From Bacilli bacterium (GTDB lineage: Bacteria; Bacillota_I; Bacilli_A; RF39; UBA660): DNA of 64,000 nt. Position numbers and translations under genes: made by a program. How positions within the stretch are numbered: the first letter of the stretch is position 1; the number at the start of each line of letters is the position of its first letter. The notes beneath the pieces were generated by a model. That model saw only the letters and a program-made list of their open reading frames with translations, searched no databases and was not told where the DNA came from. The stretch spans positions 9,764 through 73,763 of the forward strand of contig JAQWAY010000001.1 in NCBI GenBank assembly GCA_028707455.1, given 5' to 3'. Below, one piece after another: positions 9,197 to 62,508 of the stretch.

Positions 9197-10108
9197 TTAA
9201 ATTTTTTTAATTTTAGTACCTTGATAATAATGCTTTAATATTTCATCATAACTATAACCCGCTTTAGCCATTCCTAAGGCACCATATTGGCTCATTCCAA
9301 CACCATGACCATATCCTTTAGTAGTTATAGTAACCTTATTATTACTGTTTTTAATAGTAAAATAATTAGACCTTAAACCTAGTTTAGATTGAACAACATT
9401 ACCATCTAGTATAGTTCCATTTATTTTAATTTTTTTAATTCTTCCTGTACTAGTAGTAGTTACATTTTCCACTTTTAAAGCATCACTATAATTTAGATTT
9501 AATTTATTATAAAATTCCTTTAAGCTATAACTACAATAATCAGTATATACAGGAGATACATCACGATCCCATAAAGATGATACACTTCTTAAATATGGTA
9601 ATTTATTATTAAATATTTCCTCACTATTTTCAGTCATACCGGTACTAGTAGAGAAAAAGAAAGCATATACTACCTGACCATTATAATCTAAGTATTCCCC
9701 ATCAGTTTCAATAACTGCTGTTTTTAACTTATTAATATTATCAGTATAATATTTTCCCCAAGCAGTCTTTAAATACTCTAAATCAAAATAAACTTGATTG
9801 GTAACAGTATCAACTAAATCATAATTATTTTTAACATTTTCTTGCATTTTATTCATTGCATAACTACGAGCAGCAACAGCTTGTGCTTTTAATGCTTCTA
9901 AGTCAAAATCAACTGGCATTTCTCCAGCTAATACACCAACAATGTATTGTTCAAAAGGCACTTCTTCTATTGTCCCATTAGTTCTTTTTATTCTAACAAT
10001 CATATTTTCATGATACTCAAATTTTATTTCATCATCACGAATAAAAATATTTACAATTATTGTTGGTATTAGGAAAAAAAGTAAAGAAAAAAGTAGTATT
10101 TTCTTCAT
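9197..10108 (-). CDS. spoIID: Stage II sporulation protein D (SpoIID/LytB lytic transglycosylase family)
   Basis: It has a signal anchor and SpoIID-domain motifs (AQAVAARSYAMNKM, GYGHGVGMSQYGA). Confidence 0.8.
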   Translation of the reverse strand: MKKILLFSLLFFLIPTIIVNIFIRDDEIKFEYHENMIVRIKRTNGTIEEVPFEQYIVGVLAGEMPVDFDLEALKAQAVAARSYAMNKMQENVKNNYDLVDTVTNQVYFDLEYLKTAWGKYYTDNINKLKTAVIETDGEYLDYNGQVVYAFFFSTSTGMTENSEEIFNNKLPYLRSVSSLWDRDVSPVYTDYCSYSLKEFYNKLNLNYSDALKVENVTTTSTGRIKKIKINGTILDGNVVQSKLGLRSNYFTIKNSNNKVTITTKGYGHGVGMSQYGALGMAKAGYSYDEILKHYYQGTKIKKI

Positions 10109-37716: not shown

Positions 37717-37745
37717 TAAAAAAAAGTAATTAAATTACTTTTTTA
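37717..37745 (-). terminator. Hairpin AAAAAAAGTAATTaaATTACTTTTTT overlapping the noc-like stop codon
   Basis: A perfect 11-bp stem is followed by a T run in minus-strand orientation. Confidence 0.5.
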
Positions 37746-39417
37746 TTTTAAATATTACTTGATATATATCTTCAAAATCTATTTCTTCAATTTCAACATC
37801 AAATCCAATACCTTCTACCTTAGTACCACATTCTCTAATAATATCTATAGCATCCTTTAATACTTTACCTTCTTGAAGTATTGGTTCAACTATTTTTTCC
37901 TCTTCAATATCTTGATTTATATTATTAACTGGTTCAATTGCCTCATCAGTAGTTGATGCAATTGGCTCAAAAGGATTATTGAAAATTGGGTTTAGTGTCT
38001 CAACCTCAGTAGTTATTTGTGGTTGATCTTGTTCTTTTGGTTGCATTGGAATATCTATAGGTTGAACTGGAACTTCCACTGGTTGTGCTTGTTCTAAAGG
38101 TTGTACTAATGCTTCCGCTGGCTGAAAAGGTACATCACTTGGAAGTGGTGTTTCTATAATAGGCGAATCATTATTAACTGATTCTGCTGGTTCTGTTTCT
38201 GGTTCTTCATTTAAAATATCAAAGAACTTTCCTGGAGTTAATATGTTTTCTGGTTGTTCTACTTCAAAATCAAAACCAACATTATTATTATTATTATTAT
38301 TATTATTTTGAGCTGCAAAAGCTGAATCTGGCTCTAATAATGAGTTAACGTCAGCTAAAGGTTTATCTTCATTTATATTTTTAGCTTCCGTTGCAATTTT
38401 TTCTATATTCATAAAACCAGGATTAATTTCATTATCTATTTGTTCTTCAATAAAAATAGGTTCTTCTGATTTAGTTTCCTCTACTTTTTCTTCTGGTTGT
38501 TCTACAATAGGAGTACTTGGTAGATTAATTGATTCTTCAATATTCTCATTTATTATAGGTGAAGATGGAAGATTAACTGATTCTTCAACTTTATCATCTA
38601 TTATTGAAGAAGTTGGTAAATTTAAATTAGATGGAGTATTAAAAATATCAACTGTTGGTTGTTCAATATTATTATTCATTGAGTTATTCCTTTCTTCAAT
38701 TGGTCGTATTCCTAAAATGGAATCAACCGTTGGTGAAAACGTATTTTCTTCTGTTGGTTGTTCAAAAGCACTTACATCTAACACTTCAACTTCATCGGAA
38801 GAAACAACATCATTTTGATTCAATATTTTATCAATTTCGTCATCTGTTTTTCTAACTGTTAGTCTATTATCTATTATTTTATTTAATATTTCTATTTGTT
38901 GACTACTCTTATTAAGTCTTAAAATAGATCGTGCATGTCTTTCTGATATTTTTCCTTCTAATAATGCTTCTTGGACATCTTCATGTAAATTTAATAATCT
39001 TAATTTATTAGCTATTGTTGATTGCTTATTTCCTAACTTGCTAGCTAATTGTTCTTGAGTAAACCCCATATCTAAAATCTTTTTATATGATATAGCTTCT
39101 TCAATTGGTGTTAAATCTTGTCTTTGAACATTTTCAATTAAGGCTACTTCAGCACTATCTTTATCATTTAAATCAGTTATAATAGCAGGTATACTATTTT
39201 TACCAGCTAAAACACTAGCTTTATATCTTCTTTCTCCAGCTATTATTTCATATTTATCACCAATTGCTCTAACCACAATAGGTTGAATTACTCCATGTTC
39301 TTTTATTGATTCAGATAATTCATTTATTGCTTCTTCGCTAAACTTAATTCTTGGTTGAAAACGATTTGGTAAAATATCCGCAAGATTTAATTCAGTTATT
39401 CTTTTCTCAATATCCAC
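37735..39417 (-). CDS. noc: Noc-type ParB-family nucleoid occlusion protein homolog with an atypical ~370-aa acidic low-complexity C-terminal extension
   Basis: Residues 1-190 form a ParB N-domain plus HTH: PNRFQPRIKF, GERRYKA, and GNKQSTIANKLRLLNL...ISERHAR. From memory these match B. subtilis Noc (PNRFQPRTIF; QSTIANKLRLLKL) better than Spo0J (PNPYQPRKHF). The gene lies directly downstream of rsmG, as noc does. The rest of the protein is a P/E/Q/N-rich disordered region with a poly-Asn run. Confidence 0.7.
   Translation of the reverse strand: MDIEKRITELNLADILPNRFQPRIKFSEEAINELSESIKEHGVIQPIVVRAIGDKYEIIAGERRYKASVLAGKNSIPAIITDLNDKDSAEVALIENVQRQDLTPIEEAISYKKILDMGFTQEQLASKLGNKQSTIANKLRLLNLHEDVQEALLEGKISERHARSILRLNKSSQQIEILNKIIDNRLTVRKTDDEIDKILNQNDVVSSDEVEVLDVSAFEQPTEENTFSPTVDSILGIRPIEERNNSMNNNIEQPTVDIFNTPSNLNLPTSSIIDDKVEESVNLPSSPIINENIEESINLPSTPIVEQPEEKVEETKSEEPIFIEEQIDNEINPGFMNIEKIATEAKNINEDKPLADVNSLLEPDSAFAAQNNNNNNNNNVGFDFEVEQPENILTPGKFFDILNEEPETEPAESVNNDSPIIETPLPSDVPFQPAEALVQPLEQAQPVEVPVQPIDIPMQPKEQDQPQITTEVETLNPIFNNPFEPIASTTDEAIEPVNNINQDIEEEKIVEPILQEGKVLKDAIDIIRECGTKVEGIGFDVEIEEIDFEDIYQVIFKIKK
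38281..38307. repeat. (ATT)9 microsatellite, which is (AAT)n on the coding strand, encoding the poly-Asn run inside noc-like
   Basis: The run attattattattattattattattatt is in frame, so slippage would change only the Asn count. Confidence 0.8.
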
Positions 39418-39452
39418 ACTATACAGCCCCTTTTTATTCTTTCAAATATATA

Positions 39453-39508
39453 ATACTATATATTGGGAAATATTACAATAGTTTTGGGAAATATTCTGTT
39501 TCTTTTTT
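39453..39508. promoter_or_regulatory. Three direct repeats TTGGGAAAT(A/G)TT, which are NBS half-sites GGGAAAT, in the noc-like promoter region
   Basis: Copies lie at 39453-39464, 39474-39485 and 39497-39508, spaced 21-23 bp apart, between the noc-like start codon at 39417 and the rsmG terminator. Confidence 0.6.
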
Positions 39509-39527
39509 GGGAAATGTTTTTTCTATT

Positions 39528-39558
39528 AAAAAGACCACTTGATTTAAAGTGGTCTTTT
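39528..39558 (-). terminator. rsmG terminator hairpin
   Basis: AAAAGACCACTTgatttaAAGTGGTCTTTT overlaps the rsmG stop codon and is followed by a T run on the minus strand. Confidence 0.6.
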
Positions 39559-40248
39559 CTTCATCTCACTATATTTTCTTGGATACTTATTACTAGTTTT
39601 ACTAAGTTTTTTAAACTTAATTAAAGTCCTATTACTTTTTTCAATTGGTAGTAAAAACTTCTTAATTTCAATTTCTTCTATCTTTAACAATTCAATAGCA
39701 TTATTATAAGTATTTTCTTCTTTTTCAATATTTCCCTTCATAGCAATAAAATATTTATTTACTTTTACCATGGGAATGGCATACTCTAATAAAATATTTA
39801 AAGGTGCAACTGCACGAGCAGTTACCACATCAAATTTTTCTCGATTTTTTAAAGCATATTCTTCACATCGATAATGAATTGCTGTAATATTCTTTAATTT
39901 TAATTTTTCAATTACTAAATTAAGAAAATCTATTCTCTTTCTTAAAGAATCAACTAAAGTAATTTCTAGATTTGGAAATAATATTTTTAATACAATACCA
40001 GGAAAACCTGCTCCCGTACCTATATCACATAAACTGCTTTCTTCTTTTAAATTTATTATTTTATTAAGGGTTAAAGAATCATAAAAATGTTTTAAATATA
40101 CTTGTTCCTTATCAACAATAGCTGTTAAATTTATTTTCTCATTCCATTCAATTAATAATTCATAATAAAGTTCTAGTTGTTCTAATTGATGACTATTAAT
40201 CTCAATATTTATTTGTTTTAAACTTTCAATAAATTTATCTACGATCAT
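39544..40248 (-). CDS. rsmG: 16S rRNA (guanine527-N7)-methyltransferase RsmG (GidB)
   Basis: It has a SAM-MTase fold and GidB-like N-terminal region (LELYYELLIEWNEKINLTAI, DIGTGAGFPG). Confidence 0.85.
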   Translation of the reverse strand: MIVDKFIESLKQINIEINSHQLEQLELYYELLIEWNEKINLTAIVDKEQVYLKHFYDSLTLNKIINLKEESSLCDIGTGAGFPGIVLKILFPNLEITLVDSLRKRIDFLNLVIEKLKLKNITAIHYRCEEYALKNREKFDVVTARAVAPLNILLEYAIPMVKVNKYFIAMKGNIEKEENTYNNAIELLKIEEIEIKKFLLPIEKSNRTLIKFKKLSKTSNKYPRKYSEMKKRPL

Positions 40249-42109
40249 TATTATATTCCTTCTTTAAATATATCATTAATATCGATATATCACTTGGATT
40301 TATACCGCTTATTCTTAGTGCTTGACCAATTGAACTTGGTCTTACCTCTTGAAGTTTTTGTTTTGCTTCACTTGCTAAATTATGAATTTTATTATAATCA
40401 ATATCCTCTGGAATAAACTTATTATCTAAATTATTCATTTTTTGTGCTTCTTTTTTAACTTTTGCAATATATCCTTCATACTTATTATTTATTTCCACTT
40501 GTTCTATTATTTCTAAATCATAATCAATCTCAATAAACCTTTTAAAATGTTCGATACTAATTTCTGGCCTTTTTAATAAATCATATAGTGATACACTATC
40601 TTTTAGTTGGGTGCTATTTATTTCTTTTAAATATTCATTTACTTCTTTAGTAGGAGTAATTCTATGATGCTTTAGCTTAGTTTCTAAATCAGTTATATTT
40701 TTCTTTTTTGTTTTAAATATATTATATCTTTCTTCATCAATAAGACCAATTTGATATCCGTATTCAGTTAATCTTAAATCTGCATTATCATGTCTTAATA
40801 ATAAACGATACTCTGCCCTTGAAGTTAATAAACGATATGGATCTCTAACTCCTTTAGTTACTAAGTCATCTATTAAAACACCGGTATATGCTTCATCTCT
40901 TTTTAAAATAAGTGGGTCTTTTCCTTCTAATTTTAATGAAGCATTTATACCTGCGATTAAACCTTGACATGCTGCTTCTTCATAACCACTAGTACCATTA
41001 ATTTGTCCTGCAGTAAATAAATTAGTTATTTTTTTTGTTTCTAATGATTGTTTTAACTGAGTCGGATAAATAGCATCATATTCAATAGCATAAGCATATT
41101 TTAATATCTTAGCATTTTCCAAACCTGGTAAACTATGAACTAATTTATCTTGAATATCATATGGCATACTTGTAGAAAAACCTTGTATATATATTGAATC
41201 AGTATGTTTACTTTCTGGTTCTAAAAATAATTGATGTTTTTCTTTATCACTAAAGCGAACAATCTTATCTTCAATTGATGGACAATATCTAGGTCCTACA
41301 CCTTCTATATCATCTAATCCACCATACATACTTGATTTATTTAAATTTTCTTGAATAATCTTATGTGTTTCTTCCGTTGTATAAATTAAATGACATGGTA
41401 CTTGTTCTTCAATTTTATATTGAGGTTGATGATAATAACTAAACGTATGATAACAATCATCACCTTTTTCAATTTTTGCTTTACTAAAATCAATACTATC
41501 CTTTTGAATTCTTTGAGGGGTTCCTGTTTTTAGTCTAACAATATCAAAACCAAGTTTTGCTAAATTACTACTTAAATATAAACTAGGCTTTTCTCCATCT
41601 GGTCCAGAAGTACGACGAGTATCTCCTACCATAATTGATGGTCTTAAATATGTTCCTGTTGTTAATATAACTATTTTGCTTGTAATTTTTTTATCATTTT
41701 CTAAAACTACTCCGCCTACTACATCATTTTCAATAATTAAATCTTCTACAATTGTCTCTAATATTTCTAAGTTTATTTGGTTTTCTAATACTTTTAACAT
41801 TTCTTGTGGATATATTAATTTATCGGCTTGGGCTCTCAATGCTCGAACGGCTGGACCTTTACCACTATTAAGCATCTTTATTTGGATCAATGATCGATCA
41901 GCAATTTTACCCATTTCACCACCTAATGCATCTATTTCGCGAACTACAATTCCTTTTGCACTTCCTCCAATAGACGGATTACAAGGCATATCAGCAATAT
42001 TTTTAATATTTCCAGTAATTAAAAGTGTTTTATGCCCTTTTCTAGCACATGCTAAAGCGGCCTCACAACCAGCATGACCTCCACCAACAACTATTACCTC
42101 ATATTCCAT
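40235..42109 (-). CDS. mnmG: tRNA uridine-5-carboxymethylaminomethyl modification enzyme MnmG (GidA)
   Basis: It has FAD-binding YEVIVVGGGHAGCEAA and is 624 aa. Confidence 0.9.
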   Translation of the reverse strand: MEYEVIVVGGGHAGCEAALACARKGHKTLLITGNIKNIADMPCNPSIGGSAKGIVVREIDALGGEMGKIADRSLIQIKMLNSGKGPAVRALRAQADKLIYPQEMLKVLENQINLEILETIVEDLIIENDVVGGVVLENDKKITSKIVILTTGTYLRPSIMVGDTRRTSGPDGEKPSLYLSSNLAKLGFDIVRLKTGTPQRIQKDSIDFSKAKIEKGDDCYHTFSYYHQPQYKIEEQVPCHLIYTTEETHKIIQENLNKSSMYGGLDDIEGVGPRYCPSIEDKIVRFSDKEKHQLFLEPESKHTDSIYIQGFSTSMPYDIQDKLVHSLPGLENAKILKYAYAIEYDAIYPTQLKQSLETKKITNLFTAGQINGTSGYEEAACQGLIAGINASLKLEGKDPLILKRDEAYTGVLIDDLVTKGVRDPYRLLTSRAEYRLLLRHDNADLRLTEYGYQIGLIDEERYNIFKTKKKNITDLETKLKHHRITPTKEVNEYLKEINSTQLKDSVSLYDLLKRPEISIEHFKRFIEIDYDLEIIEQVEINNKYEGYIAKVKKEAQKMNNLDNKFIPEDIDYNKIHNLASEAKQKLQEVRPSSIGQALRISGINPSDISILMIYLKKEYNNDRR

Positions 42110-42124
42110 CTATTCACCTTCTTC

Positions 42125-43480
42125 CTATTTTCCTAAACAAAATTGACTAAATAATTGATCTAATAATTCTTCTTGATAAGTTTCACCAATTATTTCACCT
42201 AATAAATTCCATATTTCTTTAATATTAATTTCAATCATATCGATTGGTAAATTATTAGATAATCCTTTTTTAACTTCTTCAACGCTATCTAATGTATGTT
42301 TTAAAATTGCTATGCTTCGAGCATTTGTTAAATAACTCATATCGTCAGTTTCTATTTGCTCTAGATTAAATATTTCCTTGATTTTGTCTTTTAATTCTTC
42401 TATTCCTTTGTCTGTAACAGCACTGGTTTTAATAATATAGTCTGAGTTTAATTTTGAAACATCCAACTTATTTTCCAAATCATTCTTATTTATAATAATG
42501 ATGTGGTTTTTATCTTCTAATTTACTTAATATTTCTAAATCATCTTTCGATATTTCTTCATTATTATTTAATACATATAAGATTAAATCTGATTTATCAA
42601 TTAACTCTAAACTTTTTTTAACTCCAATACTTTCCACAATATCATCAGTTTTTCTTATTCCAGCAGTATCAACAATATTTAATATTATTCCATCAATACT
42701 TATTGTTCCTTCGACGATATCTCTAGTAGTTCCTTCTATTTCGGTAACGATAGCTTTATCTTCACCTATTAATTTATTTAATAAACTACTTTTACCAACA
42801 TTTGGTCTACCTATAATAGATGTTGAAATACCTTCTTTAATTAATTTACTGTTTTCACTTTCTTTTAAAATAGTTCTAATTTTACTTTCAATATTAGAGA
42901 TTTTATCTAATATGTGTTTATTAGTTATTTCTTCTATATCTTCATATTCTGGGTAATCAATATTTACTTCAATATTAGCTAGTATTTCAATTATTTCCTG
43001 ACGTAAACCTCTGATGAGATTAGACACCTTGCCATTTACTTGATTAATTGCTAATGTTCTAGCTTTCTCTGTTTTAGAATTAATTAAATCGATAACCCCT
43101 TCAGCTTGTGTTAAATCAATTCTTCCATTTAAAAAAGCCCTTTTGGTGAACTCACCGGGTTCTGCTAAACGACAACCACTATGTAATAATAGTTCTAAAA
43201 TCCTATTAGTAGTTGCAATTCCACCATGAGCATTAATTTCAACCACATCTTCACGTGTAAAAGTTTTAGGAGTACGCATTACTGAAATTAATACTTCATC
43301 AATAACTTTTTCTCCATCAATAATATGATCATAATGAATAGTATGACTTAATGAATTTTCTATTTTTTTTGTTTTAGTAATGCTATTTACTATACTTATA
43401 GCTTCGTTACCGCTAACACGAATAATTGATATTGCACCAACACCTAAGGCAGTTGATATTGCTGTAATTGTATCATCCAT
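42125..43480 (-). CDS. mnmE: tRNA modification GTPase MnmE (TrmE)
   Basis: It has a G-domain (GRPNVGKSSLLN, DTAGIR) and a C-terminal CxGK ending CLGK. Confidence 0.9.
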   Translation of the reverse strand: MDDTITAISTALGVGAISIIRVSGNEAISIVNSITKTKKIENSLSHTIHYDHIIDGEKVIDEVLISVMRTPKTFTREDVVEINAHGGIATTNRILELLLHSGCRLAEPGEFTKRAFLNGRIDLTQAEGVIDLINSKTEKARTLAINQVNGKVSNLIRGLRQEIIEILANIEVNIDYPEYEDIEEITNKHILDKISNIESKIRTILKESENSKLIKEGISTSIIGRPNVGKSSLLNKLIGEDKAIVTEIEGTTRDIVEGTISIDGIILNIVDTAGIRKTDDIVESIGVKKSLELIDKSDLILYVLNNNEEISKDDLEILSKLEDKNHIIIINKNDLENKLDVSKLNSDYIIKTSAVTDKGIEELKDKIKEIFNLEQIETDDMSYLTNARSIAILKHTLDSVEEVKKGLSNNLPIDMIEINIKEIWNLLGEIIGETYQEELLDQLFSQFCLGK

Positions 43481-45635: not shown

Positions 45636-45973
45636 TAAACGTTCTCCTTTAATACTTTTATCTTGGTAAGAATTTCAAATAATTCTTTTTTCATATCGGC
45701 AAATGTTTTATTTAAAATATCTTTCTTTACTATTATAATACAATTAAAACCTTTTTGGTAGTTTTTTTGATCAATAATATTTTTTAATTGCCTTTTTATT
45801 TTATTTCTAACAACTGCATTACCAATTCTAGTACCTACTGAAATACCAAAGCGATATATTTCTTCATCGTGATGTTCTAAATAAATAATATAACTCTTAA
45901 ATTTATATGGTTTATAGTTTTTAATTATTCTTTGAAACTCACGATTTTCTCTTAGAATATTTATCTTTTTCAT
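45635..45973 (-). CDS. rnpA: Ribonuclease P protein component
   Basis: It is 112 aa and basic. It lies downstream of rpmH. Confidence 0.85.
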   Translation of the reverse strand: MKKINILRENREFQRIIKNYKPYKFKSYIIYLEHHDEEIYRFGISVGTRIGNAVVRNKIKRQLKNIIDQKNYQKGFNCIIIVKKDILNKTFADMKKELFEILTKIKVLKENV

Positions 45974-45998
45974 ATTTCACCTCTTAATAGTAAAAAAC

Positions 45999-46018
45999 CA
46001 CTGAAAAAACAGTGGTAG
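45999..46018 (-). terminator. Hairpin between rpmH and rnpA (attenuator/terminator)
   Basis: ACCACTG-aaaaaa-CAGTGGT is followed by a T run in minus-strand orientation. Confidence 0.5.
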
Positions 46019-46021
46019 TTG

Positions 46022-46144
46022 TTAATGGGATAATACTTTACGTCCTTTTTTTCTTCTTCTTTTTATAATTGATGTTTTCATACGAGCAAAGAATCCCATT
46101 TTTTTACTTCTTTTTCTTGTATTTGGTTGAAAAGTTCTTTTCAT
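46022..46144 (-). CDS. rpmH: 50S ribosomal protein L34
   Basis: Hand translation of the minus strand gives [40 protein letters not shown] followed by a stop. It is too short for the ORF track. Confidence 0.9.
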
Positions 46145-46255
46145 ACGTATACACCTCCTGAAATTTAATTTTTTGTGTGTTGCTAATTCATTATATATAT
46201 AAAAGCGGCTTTTGTCAAACTTTTTTTTCTTTATTTATAATACAAATATATAGTT

Positions 46256-46448
46256 TAGTGGAAAAAAATACTCACAAATATGTTTTCCACAGTATTTTGT
46301 TTTTTTATTTATATATATTTAATATCTTTTAACTAGTTTTCCACAAATGTGTGGAAAAGTTATGAACTTTTATATGTTAATAACTTTTTTTCCACTTTGT
46401 ATGTGGAAAAGTGTCTTTTATGAATGTTTTTAATAACTTTTTTCCACA
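46256..46448. promoter_or_regulatory. oriC, the DnaA-box cluster upstream of dnaA
   Basis: At least seven TTTTCCACA, TTTTCCACT or inverse TGTGGAAAA boxes lie at 46256, 46284, 46337, 46349, 46387, 46402 and 46440, in both orientations. An AT-rich tract sits at 46300-46326. Confidence 0.75.
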
Positions 46449-46515
46449 TTTTAATTGTTATTTATGAAAAAATAAGGTAAAATGTTAATTAGATGGTGAA
46501 TTGAGGTGGTTTGGT

Positions 46516-47868
46516 ATGAAAATAGAAGTTATTTGGGATTCTTTTTTAAATAAAATTAAAGAAGAGTTAAAACAACCATTACTATATGATGCTTGGTTTG
46601 CTGAAACTAAATTAATCGAATTAAAAGATGATTATGCTAAAATATTAGTTCCAATGCCTATCCATAAAAAACATTTAAAAAGTAATTACAATGATTTAAT
46701 TGAAAAAACATTTAATGAAATTACTGGTTCTAATTTTAAAATTGAGTATATTACAGAAGAAGAGTTAGAACAAAATATTGTTATTGATACTGATAATATG
46801 GGGGTCCCTGCTGATGTATTTGTATCTAATCTAGATCCTAAACATACATTTGATAATTTTATAGTTGGGGAAAGTAATAAATTTGCTAAATATAATGCTC
46901 TTGCTGTAGCAGAAAAACCAGGACAGATTTATAATCCTTTATTTATATATGGGTCAAGTGGTCTTGGGAAAACCCATTTAATGCACGCAATTGGAAATTA
47001 TATTGTGGAAAATAGTAATAAAAAGGTATTATATACGACAAGTGATTACTTTGTTAATGATTTTGTTGAACTATATAAACATAAAAGCAGTAAGAATAAC
47101 TTTGATATTGTTGATAAATTTAAAGAAAAGTATAGAAGTTTAGATGTTCTAATTATAGATGATATTCAATACTTAGAAATTGCACCTACATCACAACAAG
47201 AATTCTTTAATACATTCAATGATTTACATAATAATAAAAAGCAAATTATTATTGCTTCAGATCGTTCACCAGATGATTTAAGAAAATTGGAAGATAATCT
47301 TCGTACAAGATTCAATTGGGGACTTACAGTTAATATTTTTCCACCGGATTTTGAATTAAGAATGAATATTATCGATACTAAAATTAAATCGTATGAAATG
47401 ATGTTTGATTTTCCACAGGATGTTAAAGAATATATTGCTAGTAATTGTACTAGTGATATAAGGAAACTTGAAGGTGCTATTAATCGTGTATATGCTTACG
47501 CAACTATAATGAATGGTTCTAATATAACTTTAGAATTAGCTATTGAAGCTTTAAAAGATTATTTTGTAAAAAGTATTATATCAAAAAATAAAATTGAACA
47601 AGTACAGCAATTGGTTGCTAATCGATATAATATTACTGTGGAAGATTTAAAAAGTAAAAGGAGAAGTGCAAACATTGGAGTTCCGCGACAAATTGCTATG
47701 TATATATGTCGCATATACCTAGAAGAACCTTTTGCTAGAATCGGTAGTGATTTTGGTGGTAAGGATCATACAACAGTAATGCACTCTGTTGATAAAATAA
47801 CTAAAGAATTACAAAAGGATCCACAGTTAGCTACAGAAATAGAAAATATTGTTAACAACATGAAATAG
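46516..47868 (+). CDS. dnaA: Chromosomal replication initiator DnaA
   Basis: It has AAA+ Walker A GSSGLGKTHL and a C-terminal DnaA-box-binding HTH. The start was set to the ATG at 46516 (MKIEVIW), which has a GAGGTGG RBS. Confidence 0.9.
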   Translation: MKIEVIWDSFLNKIKEELKQPLLYDAWFAETKLIELKDDYAKILVPMPIHKKHLKSNYNDLIEKTFNEITGSNFKIEYITEEELEQNIVIDTDNMGVPADVFVSNLDPKHTFDNFIVGESNKFAKYNALAVAEKPGQIYNPLFIYGSSGLGKTHLMHAIGNYIVENSNKKVLYTTSDYFVNDFVELYKHKSSKNNFDIVDKFKEKYRSLDVLIIDDIQYLEIAPTSQQEFFNTFNDLHNNKKQIIIASDRSPDDLRKLEDNLRTRFNWGLTVNIFPPDFELRMNIIDTKIKSYEMMFDFPQDVKEYIASNCTSDIRKLEGAINRVYAYATIMNGSNITLELAIEALKDYFVKSIISKNKIEQVQQLVANRYNITVEDLKSKRRSANIGVPRQIAMYICRIYLEEPFARIGSDFGGKDHTTVMHSVDKITKELQKDPQLATEIENIVNNMK

Positions 47869-55417: not shown

Positions 55418-55576
55418 TGTTTCACGTGAAACAAAATAATACATACAATGTTCCACGTGAAACTTTAATTAGTGAATCATTAATTATAAAAATTGTTTCA
55501 AAATTCAACGTTCCACGTGAAACAATTACAATTAGATATAAAATAACTAAAAAAAAGTAATGTTCCACGTGAAACG
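55418..55576. promoter_or_regulatory. Cluster of four parS centromere-like sites
   Basis: TGTTTCACGTGAAACA lies at 55418-55433, TGTTCCACGTGAAACT at 55449-55464, CGTTCCACGTGAAACA at 55509-55524, and TGTTCCACGTGAAACG at 55561-55576. All match the Firmicute parS consensus tGTTNCACGTGAAACa with 0-1 mismatches. Confidence 0.8.
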
Positions 55577-55619
55577 TTACTTTTTTATATACATTTATAT
55601 TCAAAAAACTAAAATTAAC

Positions 55620-55633
55620 ATTTCCCGGGAAAT
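55620..55633. promoter_or_regulatory. Noc-binding-site (NBS) palindrome ATTTCCCGGGAAAT
   Basis: It is a perfect 14-bp palindrome identical to the B. subtilis NBS consensus. It is a rare GC-rich word in this AT-rich DNA. Confidence 0.7.
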
Positions 55634-61662: not shown

Positions 61663-62508
61663 ATGTCACAAAAAAGTTACGATAATAGTCCAACTTTATA
61701 TTTAATACCTACTCCAATTGGTAATATGGATGATATTACTCTAAGAGCAATTAATATATTAAAAGAAGTAAAAGTAATATTTTCGGAAGACACAAGAGTA
61801 ACTGGATTATTATTAAGTAAATTAGGTATTAAAAAAAAGACAATTGCTAATCATGAATATAATGAGAAAAAAAATATGGAATTAGCTATTAAATATTTAA
61901 ATAATGGTGATAGTATTGGTCTAGTTAGTGATCGAGGAACCCCCATTATTAGTGATCCTGGTTATGAAATAACTAAATATGTTATTGAACAGGGGTATAA
62001 TGTTGTTTCACTACCTGGAGCAACAGCATTAATCCCAGCTTTAACAGTTTCTGGAATCAGTCCGATGCCTTTTCTATTTTATGGTTTTTTAAATAGTAAT
62101 GAAAATAAAAGAATAAAAGAATTAGAAAATTTAAAAAATGTAAAGGCAACTATAATCTTTTATGAAGCACCTCATCGTATTCATAAAACGTTGGGAAATG
62201 TTTTAAATGTTTTTGGAAATAGGGAAATTTGTATTTCCCGGGAAATAACTAAAAAGCACGAAGAGGTTTATCGTGGAACTGTCAAAGATGTTTTAGAACA
62301 AATTGTTGACATTAAAGGTGAAATTGTTTTAGTTGTATCTGGTAATAATAAAGGGGAAAACTATGACAACTGTACACTTATTGAACATATTGAACAATAT
62401 ATTGCCGATGGTTACAAAGTTATGGATGCAATTAAGGCAGTGAGTAAGGATCGTAATCTTAAAAAAAGCGATGTCTATAATGAATATTTAAAATATAAAG
62501 GTAGATGA
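61663..62508 (+). CDS. rsmI: 16S rRNA (cytidine1402-2-prime-O)-methyltransferase RsmI
   Basis: It has the tetrapyrrole-methylase fold and LYLIPTPIGNMDDITLRA. Confidence 0.85.
   Translation: MSQKSYDNSPTLYLIPTPIGNMDDITLRAINILKEVKVIFSEDTRVTGLLLSKLGIKKKTIANHEYNEKKNMELAIKYLNNGDSIGLVSDRGTPIISDPGYEITKYVIEQGYNVVSLPGATALIPALTVSGISPMPFLFYGFLNSNENKRIKELENLKNVKATIIFYEAPHRIHKTLGNVLNVFGNREICISREITKKHEEVYRGTVKDVLEQIVDIKGEIVLVVSGNNKGENYDNCTLIEHIEQYIADGYKVMDAIKAVSKDRNLKKSDVYNEYLKYKGR
62233..62246. promoter_or_regulatory. Second NBS palindrome ATTTCCCGGGAAAT, inside the rsmI coding sequence
   Basis: It is identical to the 14-mer at 55620. Confidence 0.65.

Follow-up and report, generated by a model that had tools for sequence, protein, structure and literature searches.

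In the 64,000-nucleotide stretch of DNA analyzed here (positions 9,764 to 73,763 of contig JAQWAY010000001.1, assembly GCA_028707455.1, from a Bacilli bacterium of the UBA660 lineage; hereafter, the window), the predicted promoter of a gene for a Noc-like protein of the ParB family carries three single arms of the Noc-binding site (NBS). Noc is known only as a nucleoid occlusion factor, which loads at full NBS, spreads, and pulls DNA to the membrane. On balance, we consider it likely that the Noc-like protein represses its own gene, with the half-NBS serving as operators; that the regulation would be negative is suggested solely by where these operators lie. Autoregulatory binding of the protein to its own promoter had been proposed in an initial annotation of this DNA, and the sequence-level tests described below, from which we infer it, support this proposal. 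The annotation had further remarked that such autoregulation is not described for Bacillus subtilis noc. Consistent with this, we found no description of Noc autoregulation in the searched literature, published mapping of the B. subtilis noc promoter lying outside that search, and the noc locus of B. subtilis is devoid of the arms.

The arms are housed in the 126-bp gap between rsmG and the 560-amino-acid Noc-like gene, both on the minus strand, 46 to 98 bp upstream of the GTG start of the latter. On the plus strand, the 9-mer TTGGGAAAT occurs there in three copies (39463 to 39471, 39484 to 39492, and 39507 to 39515) spaced by 21 and 23 bp, with the GGGAAAT core at 39465, 39486, and 39509 and always in the same orientation. 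The three half-sites and their spacing of roughly two helical turns were thus correctly reported in the initial annotation; the span that it gave, 39453 to 39508, locates the cluster but clips the third copy, which runs to 39515, by 7 bp. Read in the direction of the gene, the repeat is ATTTCCCAA (TATTTCCCAAAA), one intact NBS arm. The 16-bp NBS consists of TATTTCCC followed by GGGAAATA, and each repeat corresponds to a full half in which the center is changed from GGG to AAA; the three copies match the 8-bp arm TATTTCCC at 8/8, 8/8, and 7/8 positions. ATTTCCC represents NBS positions 1 to 7, and A1 and C6, the bases that tell NBS from parS, are present in all three arms.

The repeats lie between genes in AT-rich sequence and might therefore be of low complexity and have arisen by chance, or they might stem from recent tandem duplication; the initial annotation had itself pointed to a common AT-rich word found elsewhere in the genome as a possible objection. 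The counts speak otherwise. GGGAAAT is found 22 times in the window, compared with 10.5 expected occurrences, and the exact 9-mer has only 8 copies in the 64 kb on both strands, 3 of which lie in this one gap. Three same-strand heptamers within 60 bp were produced in 0 of 400 first-order Markov simulations of the window, and the Poisson expectation for such triples is ~5e-4 per window. A common low-complexity word was rejected on the basis of these counts and simulations. Recent tandem duplication was rejected as well because the units are alike in their core only: an 11- to 12-nucleotide core, TATTTCCCAAA(A), is common to the three, and nothing beyond it. Together with the cross-species conservation presented below, this leaves next to no room for chance or duplication as the origin of the repeats.

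The arms are in register with a predicted sigma-A-type promoter, TTGTAA-17-TATTAT, in which the first arm fills the spacer and the second abuts the -35 hexamer. In the direction of transcription, the elements are as follows.

39507 to 39515, minus strand: third, distal half-site, C-ATTTCCC-AAAAAA, beside the rsmG terminator and 23 bp above the second half-site.
39484 to 39492, minus strand: second half-site, ATTTCCCAAAA (T-ATTTCCC-AAAA), ending 5 bp short of the -35 hexamer and spaced by 21 bp from the proximal half-site.
39473 to 39478, minus strand: putative -35 hexamer, TTGTAA.
39463 to 39471, minus strand: proximal half-site, T-ATTTCCC-AA, at positions 2 to 8 of the 17-bp spacer.
39450 to 39455, minus strand: putative -10 hexamer, TATTAT, followed by ~16 nucleotides to the ribosome-binding site.
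39427 to 39433, minus strand: ribosome-binding site AAAGGGG, 9 nucleotides before the GTG, read from the sequence.
37735 to 39417, minus strand: Noc-like ParB-family gene, 560 amino acids, GTG start, defined by its open reading frame (ORF) and domains.

An alternative promoter, TTGAAA-16-TATAGT, was rejected; its -10 hexamer directly adjoins the start codon, which would leave no room for the ribosome-binding site.

Conservation across relatives supports this arrangement. The comparative set comprised 80 species-level loci encoding relatives of the protein (denoted by L numbers), and the upstream test contrasted the upstream regions of 81 noc-like genes with those of 931 other ORFs. Between -150 and -20 of the noc-like genes, ATTTCCC/GGGAAAT reaches a density of 7.1 per kb, compared with 0.21 elsewhere. 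At least one copy is present in 39 of the 81 noc-like regions and in 30 of the 931 others (Fisher's test, 5e-29), and at least two copies are found in 28 and 15 of them, respectively (1e-22). A promoter skeleton, TTGnnn-17-TAnnnT, is common to 33 to 34 orthologous loci of uncultured Bacilli with an invariant 17-bp spacing, and in 28 of 34 of these promoters ATTTCCC occupies spacer positions 2 to 8. The CCC triplet, which is not imposed by the anchor pattern, was found in 28 to 30 of 33 loci when bases were counted individually with a stricter anchor. At positions farther than 20 bp upstream of the -35 element, the orthologous loci retain less than 0.3 bits per position, and in an alignment of 12 species, TATTTCCCAAA ... 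TTG.A.TATTTCCCAA..TATA.TAT.AT is invariant beside flanks that cannot be aligned. The ribosome-binding site is kept in relatives as AAGGGG or AGGAGG.

The upstream arm takes several forms. In ~15 loci it is a direct copy 21 to 23 bp away, in L004, L005, L007, L011, and L019 it is inverted and 18 to 30 bp away, and in L008, L009, L012, and L015 it is part of an everted palindrome, GGGAAATATTTCCC, located immediately before the -35 hexamer. In its place, L032 (with four more arms) and L073 carry a full NBS. A third copy is present only in this window and in a few relatives (L044 and L025) and is not generally conserved. Thus, all three half-sites that the initial annotation placed in the noc promoter exist, but wide conservation extends to the two promoter-proximal copies only. 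The change of orientation of the upstream arm between species argues for recognition of double-stranded DNA and not for an RNA element. In line with this, a search of positions 39300 to 39700 against Rfam for an RNA-level element gave nothing credible (best E = 0.11, far under the gathering score), and such an element was rejected.

The fixed register of the proximal element to the -35 and -10 hexamers could also be explained if the conserved spacer were a feature intrinsic to the promoter and had no dedicated binder, for instance a spacer or UP-like element serving to tune RNA polymerase, and the A-tracts after each arm do sit where UP-element-like runs of A/T occur. However, other promoters of the same genomes lack the element, a G+C-rich triplet such as CCC is out of the ordinary for spacers of a genome with 27% GC, and the upstream copy flips its orientation and is sometimes a full palindrome. 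We therefore regard this explanation as quite improbable.

The encoded protein has the residues that would be expected of an NBS reader. Its residues 1 to 200 comprise ParB_N (Pfam, E = 2.4e-33) and HTH_ParB domains, and the motifs GERRYKA and IENVQRQ align with GERRWRA and IENLQRE of Noc, which belong to the ParB-type cytidine triphosphate (CTP)-binding domain. The best matches in the PDB are Noc structures (Geobacillus, 207 bits; B. subtilis, 184 bits), Spo0J reaching 166 to 180 bits, and identity to B. subtilis Noc amounts to 51% over 199 aligned positions. In Noc, Q173 reads A1 and R201 reads C6 of the NBS arm; of the lysines at positions 179 and 184, either one is enough for NBS recognition (PMC7383237). 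The equivalent residues in the Noc-like protein are Q132, K138, N143, and R160, that is, Q-K-N-R, compared with QKKR in Noc and RHTG in B. subtilis Spo0J; the protein thus has the two residues that switch specificity, along with one permissive lysine out of two. QKNR is shared by 61 of 81 family members.

The remainder of the protein is less conventional. The last 44 residues align over their full length with the profile built from C-terminal domains of canonical Noc (hhalign probability, 96.4%; E = 1.3e-9), suggesting a C-terminal dimerization domain of the Noc type. AlphaFold2 predicted residues 1 to 209 and 517 to 560 as folded with moderate to high confidence, the predicted local distance difference test score (pLDDT) being ~88 to 91 from residue 521, and gave a pLDDT below 50 over most of residues 210 to 516, which predicts a disordered linker of ~300 residues (205 to 516) between the DNA-binding and C-terminal domains. 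Comparison of the whole family with the canonical Noc profile covered the N-terminal 200 residues, whereas the C-terminal domain and the linker were compared separately. The ~10-residue amphipathic membrane-targeting sequence at the N terminus of Noc is absent from this protein, whose ORF starts 16 residues before PNRFQPR, compared with ~39 in B. subtilis Noc; the whole family is alike in this respect. The NCBIfam model TIGR04285 was matched with 277.7 bits, below its cutoff of 315, over model positions 2 to 210 of 255. Judged by its domains, synteny, and specificity residues, the protein is a Noc orthologue, but an atypical one. The family to which it belongs is large, consists of proteins of 320 to 800 amino acids, and is found in uncultured Bacilli and in metagenome-assembled genomes of "Tenericutes."

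Two conserved motifs were observed in the linker. The first, PGKFF with an acidic run after it (residues 396 to 412), hardly varies within the family, and its F398 and F399 are invariant in 32 sequences. Its similarity to the N-terminal targeting sequence of Noc, SRFFGIGEKEQEPE, is weak (BLASTP, E = 4e-4; hhalign probability, 16%), and the membrane helix may have been relocated into the linker. The second motif, NPGFMNIxKIE, includes a short predicted helix at residues 338 to 344.

Full NBS are present in the same genome. The window contains two exact copies of ATTTCCCGGGAAAT, compared with a chance expectation of 0.37 matches when up to 2 mismatches are allowed.

55620 to 55633: exact full NBS, intergenic, separated by 44 bp from the cluster of four parS that precedes it and by 43 bp from the signal recognition particle (SRP) RNA gene that follows.
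62233 to 62246: exact full NBS within rsmI, preceded by satellite half-sites at 62193 to 62199 and 62222 to 62228 and a near-arm at 62214.

Both palindromes had been listed in the initial annotation and proved exact. The placement of the second one inside rsmI, which was also part of that annotation, agrees with an ORF at 61663 to 62508 that carries a TP_methylase domain, consistent with RsmI. There, the NBS is read as the codons ATT TCC CGG GAA ATA. Among the 470 arginine codons of 26 ORFs of the window, CGG is used once, namely in this NBS, and TCC accounts for 1.5% of the serine codons. The sole CGG and the rare TCC point to selection on the NBS at the DNA level, which implies that NBS are under such selection in this genome. 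Both NBS and all four parS are kept in a 99.6% identical strain from another sample (L087).

The parS sites were noted as a feature of their own. All four lie just after gyrA (55418, 55449, 55509, and 55561), one being an exact TGTTTCACGTGAAACA and three having 2 mismatches. The parS/NBS array at 55418 to 55633 precedes the SRP RNA gene (Rfam RF00169, 55676 to 55761) and is identical in L087, and its NBS at 55620 may overlap the SRP RNA gene promoter. Despite these four good parS, neither a second ParB nor a ParA was found across the 64 kb of the window and the 10 kb that adjoin its right end. A separate soj-parB pair is adjacent to the noc-like gene or 6 to 8 kb from it in 7 relatives, which indicates that the lineage has both paralogues.

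The window represents the origin region of a Firmicute chromosome with 27% GC, in which the GC skew flips at ~46 kb. On the minus strand, the gene order is mnmE, mnmG, rsmG, the 126-bp gap, the Noc-like ORF, and uvrB. Genes and features around the promoter are given below.

46501 to 47868: dnaA.
42125 to 43480, minus strand: mnmE.
40235 to 42109, minus strand: mnmG.
39544 to 40248, minus strand: rsmG (gidB), upstream of the noc-like gene; GidB domain, E = 1.5e-52.
39528 to 39559, minus strand: intrinsic terminator hairpin of rsmG, 13-bp stem plus U-run, -16.5 kcal/mol, z = -5.1, with 0 of 200 shuffled sequences as stable.

Through this predicted hairpin, the noc-like gene is insulated from the operon that precedes it. 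The gap between rsmG and noc measures 63 to 72 bp in more distant relatives and contains no arms there. Seven such loci (L039 to L078) have a total of 11 full NBS, 11/11 intergenic, and 9 of these precede mnmE or mnmG of the mnmE-mnmG-rsmG-noc operon by 43 to 103 bp; one of the other two is found 368 bp upstream of mnmE, and one, in L073, 94 bp upstream of the noc-like gene. Downstream of noc in these loci, there was no full NBS in the 10 kb sampled. Arms are not a general property of noc genes: this idea was rejected, as the 360 bp upstream of noc proved free of arms at four canonical Bacillaceae loci (B. subtilis, the Bacillus pumilus group, Metabacillus, and Cytobacillus).

Several observations on related sites accompany this comparison. 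In L039, L057, L060, L066, L069, L073, and L078, the NBS before mnmE or mnmG is embedded in an extended palindrome of 22 to 26 bp, AAAATT-ATTTCCCGGGAAAT-AATTTT, which in L078 and L066 ends 7 to 8 bp before TATAAT and so overlaps the -35 region. An exact NBS lies inside the rsmG coding sequence of L006, L009, and L034, ~270 to 300 bp upstream of the noc-like start; in L017 this site is degenerate, and the equivalent place in the window holds a single GGGAAAT (39730 to 39736). Upstream of the canonical noc of Metabacillus litoralis (L085, 4896 to 4930), a parS-like GTTTCATGTGAAAC with one mismatch directly follows the rsmG stop codon. In the window itself, two further arms are found upstream of typA/bipA (363 to 2189), TTGGGAAAT at 2270 and TCGGGAAAT at 2316, on the minus strand and 46 bp apart; one of them is intergenic and lies ~70 bp upstream of the promoter-like site TGTGATATAAT.

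The genomic distribution of arms and palindromes bears on whether the Noc-like protein might bind the arms for chromosome organization rather than for transcription, the arms acting near the origin as low-affinity sites of retention or anchoring, or as a landing pad in cis for freshly synthesized protein, with any effect on the promoter being incidental. Half-parS of Pseudomonas aeruginosa offer a precedent, since they were proposed to serve nucleoid retention of ParB and had only moderate effects on expression. Pairs of half-sites are also present in the dnaA-rnpA intergenic region (oriC) of L004 (2295 to 2360), L005 (2303 to 2370), L012 (3001 to 3030), and L025 (3148 to 3185), where they lie among DnaA-box-like TGTGGAAAA or TTCCACA words, and the rsmI NBS has its satellite half-sites. 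The oriC pairs recall the role in replication initiation that was reported for Staphylococcus aureus Noc (PMC5540599); positions 45636 to 46500 of this window contain no arms. However, a position fixed to the nucleotide within a 17-bp spacer in ~30 species is hard to explain without a transcriptional role, and in the distant loci every full NBS is located upstream of operon genes. We consider a purely organizational role unlikely, albeit the least unlikely of the alternatives.

If the Noc-like protein represses its own gene, the following mechanism can be envisaged. Each arm would be bound by one helix-turn-helix domain, in keeping with crystal structures in which each Noc or ParB subunit contacts one half-site. 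At distances of 21 to 23 bp, the arms would present themselves on one face of the helix, straddling and filling the core promoter, so that bound protein could block sigma-A RNA polymerase and bring about negative autoregulation. Full palindromes stimulate the CTP-dependent closure after which Noc and ParB are free to slide (PMC8429893). On a lone arm, this clamp closure is probably not triggered, and without it the protein would be parked on the arm rather than sliding off. Closure on full palindromes (PMC8429893), taken together with local binding to half-parS (PMC10419367), suggests that lone arms would keep the protein from moving away. A dimer, with its two DNA-binding domains tethered by the ~300-residue disordered linker, could occupy two arms in any relative orientation, and the orientation independence of the upstream arm fits such independently acting domains on a long flexible tether.

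Several points weigh against autorepression through the arms. Of the 34 orthologous promoters, six have the skeleton without CCC, and all but one of the corresponding proteins keep Q...R; the site is thus dispensable. In L020, L021, L022, L033, and L045, the recognition residues are Q-T-N/S-R without a permissive lysine, and yet these loci have two perfect ATTTCCC arms; this is at odds with the finding that QT.R variants are nonfunctional in a Caulobacter ParB scaffold (PMC7383237). A reanalysis cited in PMC7022226 found no half-parS binding by B. subtilis ParB, and half-site binding would thus not be general to the family. The transcription start of the noc-like gene is a predicted one, and we likewise infer the binding of the arms by the Noc-like protein. 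Furthermore, the spacer is conserved as a whole, ATTTCCC-AAA-TATAG, and not as an arm alone, so that it might constitute a larger operator for a different factor.

According to this last idea, another transcription factor would read the conserved ATTTCCCAAA(A)TATAG, and the likeness to an NBS arm would be coincidental. Conservation that reaches past the 7-mer into AAA and TATAG fits such a factor, as does the loss of CCC from six promoters without a matching change in the recognition residues of the Noc-like protein. By contrast, the motif is nearly absent from other upstream regions (30 of 931), it keeps exactly the two bases that define NBS versus parS, and a full 14-bp NBS occurs at the same locations in L032 and L073 as well as at the operon promoters of distant relatives. 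We know of no Firmicute regulator whose motif matches the conserved spacer element, no database having been searched for one. A different factor is accordingly an unlikely reader of the site, slightly more so than an organizational role is an unlikely purpose of it. In L023 (2000 to 2210), the protein has R...G residues of the ParB type (R-K-N-G) and the otherwise conserved spacer reads ATTTTCT, not ATTTCCC. This is the single informative case of possible covariation between protein and operator, too few to count.

Beyond autorepression of a single gene, it is tempting to speculate that, in a large Bacilli lineage that is uncultured and has small genomes, Noc lost its N-terminal membrane helix, acquired a disordered tether of ~300 residues, and in this form also serves as a transcription factor. 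Its DNA-binding domains, each acting independently, would recognize single arms in any orientation and stay parked there, as the CTP clamp would not close on a lone arm, so that its own promoter and, in some species, oriC might act as sensors of free Noc. Such a protein would represent the first case of autoregulation in the Noc family and would provide the first functional half-NBS operators. We put this forward as a tentative idea, which to us appears rather doubtful on present evidence.

Should autorepression be confirmed, it would represent a feedback loop that sets Noc dosage, which matters because excess Noc blocks division. Moreover, the system would be a natural one in which to study the CTP switch of ParB-family proteins on half a site, i.e., binding without clamping, a question that so far has been approached only via the scattered half-parS of Pseudomonas. 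Our analysis also draws attention to an abundant but unstudied Noc architecture in Bacilli of guts and fermenters.

Among the closest known systems is Noc of B. subtilis and S. aureus with its 14- to 16-bp NBS, TATTTCCCGGGAAATA. Shared features are the CTP-binding and DNA-binding domains, residues Q173, K179, and R201, the Noc-type C-terminal domain, the location of the gene directly downstream of rsmG, and exact NBS palindromes in the genome. In contrast to Noc, the protein described here has no N-terminal amphipathic helix, has a disordered linker of ~300 amino acids, and has N instead of K at position 184, and its gene is followed by uvrB and not by soj-spo0J. Canonical noc loci are without upstream NBS arms, and no regulation of noc by Noc itself is known.

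KorB of IncP-1 plasmids resembles the Noc-like protein in being a CTP-binding protein of the ParB family and was a distant match in the PDB (8qa8, E = 8e-16). KorB uses a full 13-bp palindrome (OB) together with its partner KorA. Here, in contrast, the putative operators are half-sites in a promoter spacer, the protein is encoded on the chromosome, and a partner is not apparent. KorB and the autoregulated plasmid ParBs repress promoters, among them the one of their own operon, via operators located at or near promoters (PMC7022226). A similar layout is apparent in this case, as the cognate site, although represented by half-sites, overlaps the predicted promoter of the protein's own gene, and full NBS are positioned upstream of operon genes in relatives.

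With respect to the recognition unit, P. aeruginosa ParB offers a parallel. It robustly binds half-parS heptamers (GTTCCAC or GTTTCAC) locally, without spreading, and independently of spreading of the clamp type (PMC5961200 and PMC10419367). In both cases, a single 7-nucleotide arm of the palindrome is the specific unit, there as a bound site and here as deduced from the DNA. Half-parS, however, are scattered genome-wide, are mostly intragenic, and have weak transcriptional effects, whereas the arms described here belong to the Noc (NBS) specificity class and are concentrated in the promoter of the protein's own gene, at fixed positions and with a phasing of 21 to 23 bp.
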